Below, piece after piece: positions 27,001 to 30,000 of a stretch of 64,000 nt of DNA. The number at the start of each line of letters is the position of its first letter. Within the stretch, counting starts at the first letter, position 1. Made by a program: the position numbers. The stretch lies in NCBI RefSeq assembly GCF_002854065.1, contig NZ_CP024152.1; one strand, written 5' to 3'. The DNA comes from Escherichia coli (GTDB lineage Bacteria > Pseudomonadota > Gammaproteobacteria > Enterobacterales > Enterobacteriaceae).

Positions 27001-30000
27001 GTTCATCCGGTATACGCAGCACATCGCAGGCCAGCCCACTGGACAGGATATGCTCAATACAATCGCTGACCAGATACATTTCCACCGCCGAAAAACGTGC
27101 GCCCCGGTTCAGGATGGCATCGAGCACCACGGGCAGGTTTTCGTCATCTTCATCAAGCCAGCAGGGGTAATCGCTTTCCTTCACGACCAGGCGAAAGCGG
27201 CGCGTCTGGCGGGTCAGTAACGTCTGACCGGTTGTGGTCAGCGCCGCCCGGATACGCCGCGTATCTTCTGCCACCTGGTAACTGACACAGCGTACTGCAT
27301 CGCGTACCGCATCAAGAACTGCCCTGATTTCGTCCTCTGCCAGCCACTCACCGGCATACGGAAAAGACACCTGTGTTCCGTCTGCCGGAAGTACCGGCAG
27401 CGACTGCCACTGACTGCCGGACAGTACCAGTTCCGCCCCGGTTCCGGTCAGTTTCTGAATGGCGGAGGCCAGGTGCGGCGGCAGCACGCCATCGTGGCGG
27501 TTAACGAGTAACGTCGCCAGCCGGGGCGCATCCAGCCGCACGTAAATGCTGATCCAGCCCGGATAGTTCGGATTTCGCTGGTCAACATCCGTCTCTTCCG
27601 GCCAGCCCTGCGCCAGCAGCAGGTTACGGGCGTGGCGACAAATCAGTGCATTCAGCGTTTCGTTCATGATTCATGGTCTCCCTGAATCGCCGCCCGGAGG
27701 CGGCGATAACATCAGTCGGTTTCGCGTGTGTTGTTTTTCAGCAGGGCGCGGGCCTGATTAACCACCGCCTGTCGGCGGGTGACGCATTCCGGGACGGCGA
27801 GGTCGTTATCACGGGCGGCCCACTCACGTTTCCACAGTGCCTGTTCAGCGGTCTGAATCAGGGACGCCAGCAGTTCAGCAGGGACGGTCACCTGGCGGTT
27901 TTCTCTCACGTTATTGATGATCTCCATCGCCACGCCGGAAGAAATACCGGACTCAATCCGCTGGTCTTCCGGGATGTCCTCCAGGCGCGCCAGGACGGTC
28001 CTGATTTCATGATCGGACAGGGAAATATCCATTCCGTCAGCGAGGGCCTGAATCTCTTCAGGGGACCAGACAACCAGCATCAGCGGCGTGTCTCCCTGAT
28101 ACTTTGCTGCCAGCTCCCGGCAGAGTATTTCGCATGTTCCGTACATACTCTCTCCCCTCAATCTTTGAAGCAGGAATCCAGTTCCAGAATTTCGGTATAT
28201 GCCTCCATCAGGAGGCGGTTTGCGCGAAACAACGTCTGACGCACCAGACGTTCCGGCAGGGTGTCAGCATTAAAGCTGTACCGCCGCTCCATCTCATTCA
28301 TGGTTGTACGCAGGTCGCACATGGCATTGGCCACCTCCGCCACTTCGGCGCGAAGTTTTTCATGTCCGGCATAGTTCATTTACGCAGCCTCCGGCATAAA
28401 CCAGTCATCATTCGCGGCCCCCTGCTGCATGGCCCGCTGTACGGCAGCCAGACGTTGCTGTCCGGCACGGTGATACTGCTCAAGCAGCTCGATACCGATA
28501 TACCGGCGTCCGGACTGGAGGGCGGCGACGCAGGTTGAGCCGCTGCCTGCAAACGGGTCCAGCACAATCGCGTTCGGGTGTGTGAAGCTCTCAATCAGCG
28601 GTTGCAGGCTGGTAACGGGCTTTTCCGTCGGGTGATGACGGTTGCCCGAATATTTCCAGCCCAGCACGTCCGGCAGCGGGTTTTGTGGCAGACGTGGACG
28701 GCCTTTTGCCAGGATGTAGGCGCATTCGTGGCGATAGCCCACATATGCGGCCTTCGATGTGTAGTTTTTGGTAAACACCAGGTGTCCGACCACGCTGAAT
28801 CCCGCATTTTTCCAGGCGGCCATAAAGCGATCGACGCGGTTCCAGCCGTAGAAGCTCACCATCAGCGCGTCTTTTTTGAGTACGCGGTACATTTCATTAC
28901 AGGCCGGTTGCAGCCATTCATCGGTTTTATCGCCGGCGATGGTGCGCCCGGAACGGTCACGAAAACCGACGAGATATGGCGGGTCAGTTAATATGAAATC
29001 AATGGCGTTATCAGGGATACGCGTCATAACATCGATGCAGTTACCAAGGACAAAACGGGACATACGAAACTCCTTCTCTTACAGAGGGCACCGGGAGGGC
29101 ACCCCTGTGGTGCCCGTTCCCCGCTGCCTGTGGGCTGTTCACCGCGTCCGGTAACGGGTCAGGCCGACCGTGGAATATCGCAGCCGTCGTCTTTTTGACG
29201 GCGAGAATATGCCGCGAAAGCGGCTTGAAGGGCGTTCATCAGAAAAGGGCGACAGGCTGGCGTACACTGTCATCGACGCCAGCCGGGAGCGGTAAAAGCG
29301 CCCGTCCCGTGCCCGCCGGACGCGGGACACTGACCACAGGCAGCGTTTATGCCGCGCCGCGTCAGCCGGCGCAGTAAAAAGAGGAGCACGGCGACATCCT
29401 TTGTCGGAAAAGAAGCGGGCGGTTTCCCGCCCGTCTCCGTCATACTTCATCCGCCATAATGCGCCACATTGTCGACTATCCACGCAGGTCCGGTGACTTC
29501 CGGCAGCTCATCGTCATCTGTCGGGGAAGACCATTCCAGTTCCCCCCACAGCACATCAACAAGCTCTCCGCGCTCATACAACTGCCAGCCACAGAAATCA
29601 CAGCCCTGTTCGGCGTACCAGTGCTCCAGCGTGCAGCCGAAAAGGCGGCTTAATTCTGCAACAACGTCGCTCTCCGGCTGACACCACGGCGTGTCGAAAT
29701 CTACCTGAATGAAGTTTTCCCCCTGACTGCTGATATTCAGGTCATACCCACAAGGCCACTTCACGCCATACCGTTCTGTATACCAGTGATATGCAGAAGG
29801 AACACCGTTCAGAACACCGCCGTTAAAGCCATTCACTTCAATATCCAGGCGGGTCGGCAAAACCGTCAGCAGGTCAAACGGCATGGTTTTTTCCGGCAGT
29901 ACGTTGTCACACAGACGGTTCCACCACACCGATACATCCTCGTTACTCCAGAAGCCACACCAGTCACCTCTCTTTGCGGTGAAAAGTGCGGTGATGGTAT

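Follow-up and report, generated by a model that had tools for sequence, protein, structure and literature searches.

A conserved spacer 5' of an orphan methylase gene on an IncI-complex plasmid as a probable class 3 single-stranded DNA promoter

The stretch of DNA analyzed here (64,000 nt from Escherichia coli, contig NZ_CP024152.1 of RefSeq assembly GCF_002854065.1; the whole stretch is called the window below) comes from an IncI-complex conjugative plasmid, and our subject is a spacer of 383 bases at 29064-29446 that lies directly 5' of an orphan DNA methylase gene. We conclude that this spacer is very probably the class 3 single-stranded DNA (ssDNA) promoter, also named ssp3, of IncI and IncF leading regions. 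The methylase gene occupies 28380-29063 on the minus strand and would come first in the operon that the element drives. Its product is an N6/N4 DNA methylase with 95% amino acid identity to M.EcoGIX and a match to Pfam family PF01555 (N6_N4_Mtase, E = 1.9e-40). The methylase ATG (29063-29061, minus strand) bounds the spacer on one side, and a Shine-Dalgarno sequence, AAGGAG, can be read 6 nt 5' of it at 29070-29075 (minus strand). On the other side the boundary is the stop codon of a DUF1281 open reading frame (ORF), ending at 29447. The coordinates of the original prediction are therefore exactly the gap between the methylase start codon and the DUF1281 stop.

The closest match to a 2-kb query is NZ_AP021916.1 (IncI-gamma/K1, MOBP, MPF_I), at 99.9% over the 2 kb. 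The genes nikA/nikB and the origin of transfer (oriT) lie at about 13.6-14.2 kb of the window, and from the oriT side to about 30.3 kb nearly all genes are on the minus strand and oriented to oriT. This leading region holds ardA, psiA/psiB, a ParB homologue, ssb, a KlcA/ArdB-type antirestriction gene, DUF1380 genes, the DNA methylase gene and the DUF1281 gene. The transferred strand (T-strand) enters the recipient 5'-first, and RNA polymerase reads its template from 3' to 5'. It follows that the leading genes are templated by the T-strand itself, which is the + strand of the window. The same orientation, with the T-strand as template, is the rule published for plasmid leading regions.

Evidence for what the spacer is comes from its published relatives. 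It is about 97% identical to the region 5' of M.EcoGIX in pESBL-EA11 (NC_018659.1), and an nhmmer profile matches the pESBL copy with E = 1e-83 and the F copy with E = 1e-82, the latter being about 96% identical by eye. The setting is also that of class 3: the spacer lies in the leading region, directly 5' of an M.EcoGIX-type methylase operon whose template is the T-strand. Two sources describe the class. Wen et al. (Nucleic Acids Research, 3 December 2025, PMC12672017) sequenced RNA from early transconjugants after removal of the donors and report that six leading-region operons of pESBL are induced by as much as about 500-fold by 15 min of conjugation, each with a large ssDNA hairpin 5' of it. 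These hairpins were divided into class 1 (ssi1-3/Frpo), class 2 (ardA, klcA) and class 3 (M.EcoGIX only), and rapid amplification of 5' cDNA ends (5' RACE) mapped all six start sites. The induction wanes by 30-60 min, and at 60 min it is much stronger in uvrD recipients. A preprint of January 2026 (10.64898/2026.01.09.698686) renames the classes ssp1, ssp2 and ssp3, and reports that an F plasmid in which ssp2 was swapped for ssp3 showed wild-type transfer into recipients expressing EcoGIII, from which it follows that ssp3 is a portable early promoter; ssp3 was not a replication roadblock there, and its promoter strength was equivalent. Earlier, Fomenkov et al. 2020 (PMC7736820) had found M.EcoGIX to be single-strand specific, with a dependence on oriT orientation, and assumed a Frpo element upstream, and distant candidates, termed 'Frpo*', were pointed out in a Salmonella island by Samuel et al. 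2024. The suggestion that the spacer might be a third single-strand promoter type giving early methylase expression thus agrees with the literature: the element has been known as class 3 since the publication of December 2025, and what we might add is only a model at the level of bases and a branched architecture.

The element is widespread on plasmids. In a plasmid database the spacer is present at ≥90% identity in at least 5000 records, from E. coli, Salmonella, Klebsiella and Shigella. At 95% identity or more the spacer is found in 4964 of the 5000 listed records, compared with 2137 of 5000 for a 2-kb flanking query, and the spacer is thus conserved better than the 2 kb that flank it. More divergent homologues were obtained by scanning the methylase against one genome per species. 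This gave 40 loci, 12 of which have a homologue of the spacer at 73-80% identity, in the genera Citrobacter, Raoultella, Enterobacter, Entomohabitans, Edwardsiella, Erwinia and Hafnia.

Two of the contigs hold additional copies. In Citrobacter amalonaticus (L012:34-295) a second complete class 3 element lies 5' of a two-gene operon (155 aa and 111 aa), which is directly followed by the class 3 copy of the methylase itself, and in Raoultella planticola (L026:667-886) there is a truncated copy that lacks the 5' strand of the main stem, P1, described below. Class 3 is therefore not always single-copy or linked to the methylase. In another lineage of methylase homologues, with 72-90% amino acid identity, the upstream region has no class 3 element and instead carries a class 2-like segment of about 70 nt at 69-79% identity (loci L009, L013-L015, L019, L020, L022, L030, L031 and L042). 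This distribution suggests that ssDNA-promoter modules may have been swapped between operons.

To quantify the folding, the whole spacer was folded as ssDNA and compared with 100 dinucleotide-preserving shuffles. The + strand reaches -111.6 kcal/mol, against -78.2 ± 4.3 kcal/mol for the shuffles (z = -7.7), and none of the 100 shuffles equals it; the minus strand gives z = -6.8. We also repeated the mining criterion of Wen et al. (PMC12672017), with 300-nt windows slid along the + strand from 13 to 33 kb and a threshold of -75 kcal/mol. The mean energy is -50.4 kcal/mol (standard deviation 12.8), and seven runs fall below the threshold, corresponding to six elements since one run is the flank of the copy at 24.7 kb. 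The spacer is one of the six, with -83.2 kcal/mol. The folding check proposed in the original prediction therefore comes out positive in computed form, and its description of the spacer holds as well. The spacer is GC-rich, although modestly so (63.4%, compared with about 53-58% in the flanking genes), and it contains multiple hairpins, including GGGCACC...GGTGCCC, whose two arms are located at 29097-29103 and 29109-29115 and pair with probability 0.99. It was also said to match neither of two repeat families, A and B, found elsewhere in the window, and when the remainder of the window was searched with the spacer, by nhmmer and by blastn (word size 7), just chance matches of 12-29 nt with E ≥ 0.02 were indeed returned. 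A suggested comparison with elements of the single-strand initiation (ssi) type gave the same outcome, the spacer having no sequence similarity to the window's three class 1 copies. Rfam covariance models gave no relevant match between 13 and 32 kb, where the only hits are three chance matches elsewhere than the spacer.

We aligned 15 sequences in T-strand orientation (73-99% identity) and computed an RNAalifold consensus, which has 85 pairs with 98.3% of the cells paired. Changes on both sides of a pair, which keep the pairing intact, are seen for 15 of the 85 pairs; shuffled alignments give 7.5 ± 1.3, with 0 of 500 reaching 15, and sliding the partners gives at most 5. These compensatory changes cluster in the hairpin H1 and in the lower and middle parts of P1, while both branches are near-invariant. 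H1 occurs in at least three distinct versions among the homologues.

As a strand control, the reverse complement of the alignment was refolded with DNA parameters. The consensus energy is -57.6 kcal/mol for the T-strand and -46.1 kcal/mol for the complement, which also has fewer pairs, and the T-strand is the more stable one in 14 of the 15 sequences. The conserved pairs include 98 G.T cells compared with 6 A.C cells (ranges 66-98 and 5-6). The fold of the T-strand thus appears modestly favoured over a fold of the mRNA.

The consensus describes the following structure on the + strand. H1, with sequence GGGCACC-CCTGT-GGTGCCC, occupies 29097-29115; four of its seven pairs are compensatory and 100% of the cells are paired. 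It lies downstream of the predicted start of transcription, and hence is also present in the mRNA leader. Next comes P1, a long imperfect stem in which the 5' strand (29122-29158) pairs with the 3' strand (29306-29345). Its core is a gap-free stem of 30 bp, 29122-29151 with 29316-29345, followed by an internal loop of 2 nt against 5 nt and by 5 further bp, 29154-29158 with 29306-29310. Compensatory changes are found in six pairs of P1 (helices 4 and 5 of the consensus), and the pairing probability is 0.99-1.00 in the lower and middle parts and 0.18 in the top 5 bp. P1 carries two branches: arm I, a hairpin of about 70 nt at 29159-29228 (helices 7-9, near-invariant in sequence, pairing probability 0.55-0.92), and arm II at 29230-29303 (helices 10-12, pairing probability 0.97 in the top stem and 0.23 at the base). 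The linkers at the junction are very short: P1 adjoins arm I directly (0 nt), 1 nt separates the two arms, and 2 nt lie between arm II and P1. In the ensemble P1, apart from its top, is near-certain, as is the top of each arm. The loop of arm II has 12 nt and contains the motif GGCGTAnAnT (29259-29268), in which the T, A, A and T positions of a -10-type hexamer are invariant in 15 of 15 sequences; the hexamer is TAAAAT in most homologues and TACACT here, a closer match to a -10 box than the GACACT discussed below. Toward the 3' end of the spacer there is a small hairpin at about 29354-29372, and then the block GCGACATC at 29391-29398, which is invariant in all 15 homologues and has the promoter hairpin to one side and the upstream gene's terminator to the other.

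The geometry of transfer tells us how a promoter in P1 would have to be read. RNA made from this element is complementary to the + strand and runs toward lower coordinates, so in the inferred promoter duplex the 5' strand of P1 must serve as template and its 3' strand as non-template, read from the loop to the base. On the 3' strand, GACACT at 29326-29331 is the sole hexamer in which position 2 is a conserved A and position 6 a conserved T, and it is our candidate -10 box. It coincides with mismatched positions of P1: in a gap-free register, every one of the 15 sequences has mismatches at -11 (A29327 against C or G), -10 and -7 (T29331 against T). The hexamer reads CACACT in the divergent homologues and CAGACT in one sequence. 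Next to the -10 box the E. coli group has further mismatches, G.A and A.G, which are C-G and G-C pairs, and thus repaired, in the other clade. The second plasmid copy in C. amalonaticus retains the same mismatches in the -10 region. It is A-11 and T-7 that sigma-70 flips from the helix. In duplex DNA, the -10 site would instead read TGAACA here and CGTACA in the other clade, both without the key bases, and this loss would make the promoter single-strand-specific. A linear scan of the spacer duplex for sigma-70 promoters found none, and a strict sigma-70 scan of the T-strand found nothing in class 3.

No linear -35 box is found 17 nt upstream of the proposed -10. A composite box is available if P1 stacks coaxially on arm I: the non-template path then runs ...GGCTTGA|CCCGTG... 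and yields TTGACC, in which TTGA is 29225-29228 and CC is 29306-29307. This matches the consensus at five of six positions, and all six bases, including the TTGA, are invariant in 15 of 15 sequences. The spacing between the two boxes would be 18-19 nt along the non-template side and 15 nt along the template side. From the same geometry, transcription would start at 29127-29131 on the minus strand, centred on 29129 and 7 nt past the -10; in every homologue the RNA would have a purine as its first base (A here, G in the other clade). The predicted 5' untranslated region (UTR) is about 66 nt long and holds H1 and the AAGGAG. Note that the exact -10, the composite -35 and the position of the start are all inferred here. 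Taken further, we tentatively propose, as a possibility that we consider rather doubtful, that class 3 is a branched promoter built on a three-way junction, with a split -35, with A-11 and T-7 kept unpaired by selection, and with arm II as a separate module. That module may be a docking or decoy site for sigma-70, an UP-like element or a priming signal. In the available parts of the literature texts consulted for class 3, we found no description of a three-way-junction architecture for any bacterial promoter.

Several other hexamers were tried as the -10 and rejected. The hexamer TACACT/TAAAAT in the loop of arm II (29263-29268) is the closest of all to the consensus and is conserved at the four key positions. 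It was rejected on topology: as the -10 it would need a loop of 12 nt to provide the template +1 as well as the non-template -10, and the sole -35-like hexamer on that strand (TTGAAG) is 29-32 nt off. In arm I, the candidates GAATAT and TATGCC either have an unconserved -11 or lack T-7, and GTTTATGCC, just past the base of P1, is unconserved among the homologues.

Together these observations can be put into a simple scheme. During conjugation the + strand of the window would enter the recipient 5'-first as ssDNA, and the region of about 29122-29345 would fold into P1 and its two branches. P1 would then mimic a duplex sigma-70 promoter, with its 3' strand as non-template and its 5' strand as template, so that host RNA polymerase could initiate near 29129 and proceed toward lower coordinates through the methylase gene and the downstream genes. 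Transcription from folded ssDNA would allow the ssDNA-specific methylase to be made before the complementary strand exists. Once that strand is synthesized the hairpin would be ironed out, the -10 would become TGAACA rather than GACACT, and the promoter would be lost. For pESBL and F, early induction, a mapped start and a stronger induction at 60 min in uvrD recipients are published (PMC12672017), as is portability (10.64898/2026.01.09.698686). Our own analysis shows the homology to the published element, the excess folding, the compensated structure, the preference for the T-strand, and the lack of both a duplex promoter and a real ORF.

Not all observations point in the same direction, and the following weigh against the class 3 promoter and against our model of it. 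The compensatory changes mostly divide two clades, corresponding to few independent events, and the advantage of the T-strand is modest, with a mean of about 3.4 kcal/mol. The helices at the junction have low pairing probabilities (0.18-0.23), because a tandem duplicate of CCCGT can slip. The proposed -10 fits the consensus at only three of six positions, and in the E. coli-type sequences a slip of 1 nt allows A-11 to pair. The proposed -35 requires that two helices stack coaxially, and in such a model the branch emerging within the -35 hexamer may clash with region 4 of sigma. As for the published element, Wen et al. (PMC12672017) call these sequences 'putative ssDNA promoters', and the available text of neither that paper nor the 2026 preprint reports an in vitro comparison of class 3 as ssDNA and as double-stranded DNA.

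The fold could alternatively serve chiefly as an ssi signal, which recruits RNA polymerase or a primosome to make the primer for the complementary strand, with expression of the methylase being secondary. Class 1 elements (Frpo) were after all first discovered as priming signals, ssp1 transcripts prime in vivo (10.64898/2026.01.09.698686), Wen et al. (PMC12672017) note that ssDNA promoters may supply primers too, and the promoter model leaves arm II, whose loop has the invariant TAnAnT, without a role. We nevertheless consider this explanation improbable, since in the preprint early transcription-dependent conversion is seen only downstream of ssp1a and ssp1b while ssp3 is treated as a promoter (10.64898/2026.01.09.698686), and since the methylase operon is induced from the element (PMC12672017). 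The two roles are compatible, and priming is possible as a second function. The conserved structure could also belong to RNA. It would then be a leader or an attenuator in the methylase mRNA, or else form the 3' end of the DUF1281 transcript. Both strands do fold well (z = -6.8 for the mRNA sense), there is a terminator-like hairpin at 29416-29433, and H1 lies in the predicted 5' UTR and covaries by Watson-Crick pairs only. But the G.T wobbles of the T-strand would be A.C mismatches in RNA (the 98 and 6 cells above), the complement folds more poorly in the controls, with 70-74 pairs and 11-14 kcal/mol less stability, and with a start near 29129 most of the fold is not transcribed from this promoter. 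This makes a role at the RNA level very unlikely.

To the two remaining explanations we give next to no credence. An annotated ORF for a hypothetical protein of 103 aa covers 29139-29450 on the minus strand, and the same annotation by the Prokaryotic Genome Annotation Pipeline (PGAP) is found in thousands of plasmids, including pESBL and F. If it were a gene its reading frame should be maintained, but the frame is shifted or broken in 10 of the 15 homologues: F and Escherichia MOD1 change frame in the N-terminal half, and in the divergent homologues the ORF is reduced to fragments of 57-83 aa that lie in other frames. It has no Pfam match, and the substitutions compensate base pairing. The ORF is thus very likely spurious, an artefact of GC-rich, stop-poor sequence, and the view that the spacer is non-coding stands. 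Finally, the hairpins could be functionless and due to chance, given that GC-rich DNA generally folds more stably and that the upstream regions of GC-rich loci of Achromobacter and Bordetella also reach -94 to -96 kcal/mol. Chance does not account for a fold that dinucleotide-preserving shuffles never match, for the covariation, for a conservation exceeding that of the neighbouring genes, or for the published functional data (PMC12672017; 10.64898/2026.01.09.698686). A class 3 ssDNA promoter remains the reading that we adopt.

The surroundings of the element include a terminator-like hairpin, CGGGCGGGAAACCGCCCG, at 29416-29433 on the minus strand, which was found in a terminator scan just past the DUF1281 stop and is followed by a T-rich tail (the whole spanning 29406-29433). 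It is a putative insulator of the methylase operon from the DUF1281 gene. The DUF1281 gene itself (29447-30349, minus strand) has a 1-nt deletion at 30208-30209 relative to NZ_AP021916.1, which yields two ORFs, 29447-30202 and 30175-30417; it is either a frameshifted pseudogene or the result of a sequencing error. The region 5' of it (30350-30767), shared divergently with dinI-like/umuDC genes, has no 300-nt window below -75 kcal/mol, and class 3 therefore appears to be the ssDNA promoter farthest from oriT. In the part of the leading region nearest oriT there is a direct repeat of 109 nt (16339-16447 and 16563-16671, 76% identity, 224-nt spacing), adjoined by a repeat of 33 nt (16455/16691).

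For an incoming resistance plasmid, ssDNA promoters govern gene expression in the first minutes in a new cell, and the class 3 element drives a single-strand-specific methylase that protects the entering DNA from restriction. Its presence in at least 5000 plasmids makes the spacer a plausible target against plasmid establishment. What is gained here is an independent comparative confirmation of the fold, a model that can be tested base by base, and a warning about an artefactual protein annotation.

Compared with class 3 of pESBL and ssp3 of F, nothing essential differs: the host plasmid has another IncI-complex backbone, and the few substitutions fall mostly in arm I and in the flanks. The other ssDNA-promoter elements of the window place it among its relatives. 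Family A corresponds to class 1 (ssi1-3/Frpo-type), with copies at 15450-15900, 18350-18860 and 24650-25200 (about 15.5, 18.4 and 24.7 kb), and family B to class 2 (ardA/klcA-type), with copies at 19550-19900 and 26500-26850 (about 19.55 and 26.5 kb), so that families A and B and the spacer map one-to-one onto classes 1, 2 and 3. With the Frpo/ssi elements of class 1 (Masai & Arai 1997; Bates et al. 1999; Couturier et al. 2023, PMC9849209) the spacer would share the principle of a T-strand hairpin 5' of leading genes that rebuilds a sigma-70 promoter, is active only as ssDNA and is switched off upon synthesis of the complementary strand. It differs from them in having no sequence similarity and in its branched form, whereas Frpo and ssi1-3 are simple long hairpins with an A/T-rich top; the class 1 copies here have several weak promoter candidates in both arms, and there are three of them in the window compared with one class 3 element. 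With class 2 (ssp2) it shares its role and strand geometry, although the two are unrelated in sequence, the only match being 29 nt at 83% with E = 0.07. The 3' arm of class 2 contains TTGCAT-15 nt-TAAGAT (26713-26739) with A-11 unpaired, a promoter on the 3' arm that supports the geometry used for class 3. Finally, ssp2 is a replication roadblock resolved by UvrD, whereas ssp3 is reported not to be one (10.64898/2026.01.09.698686).

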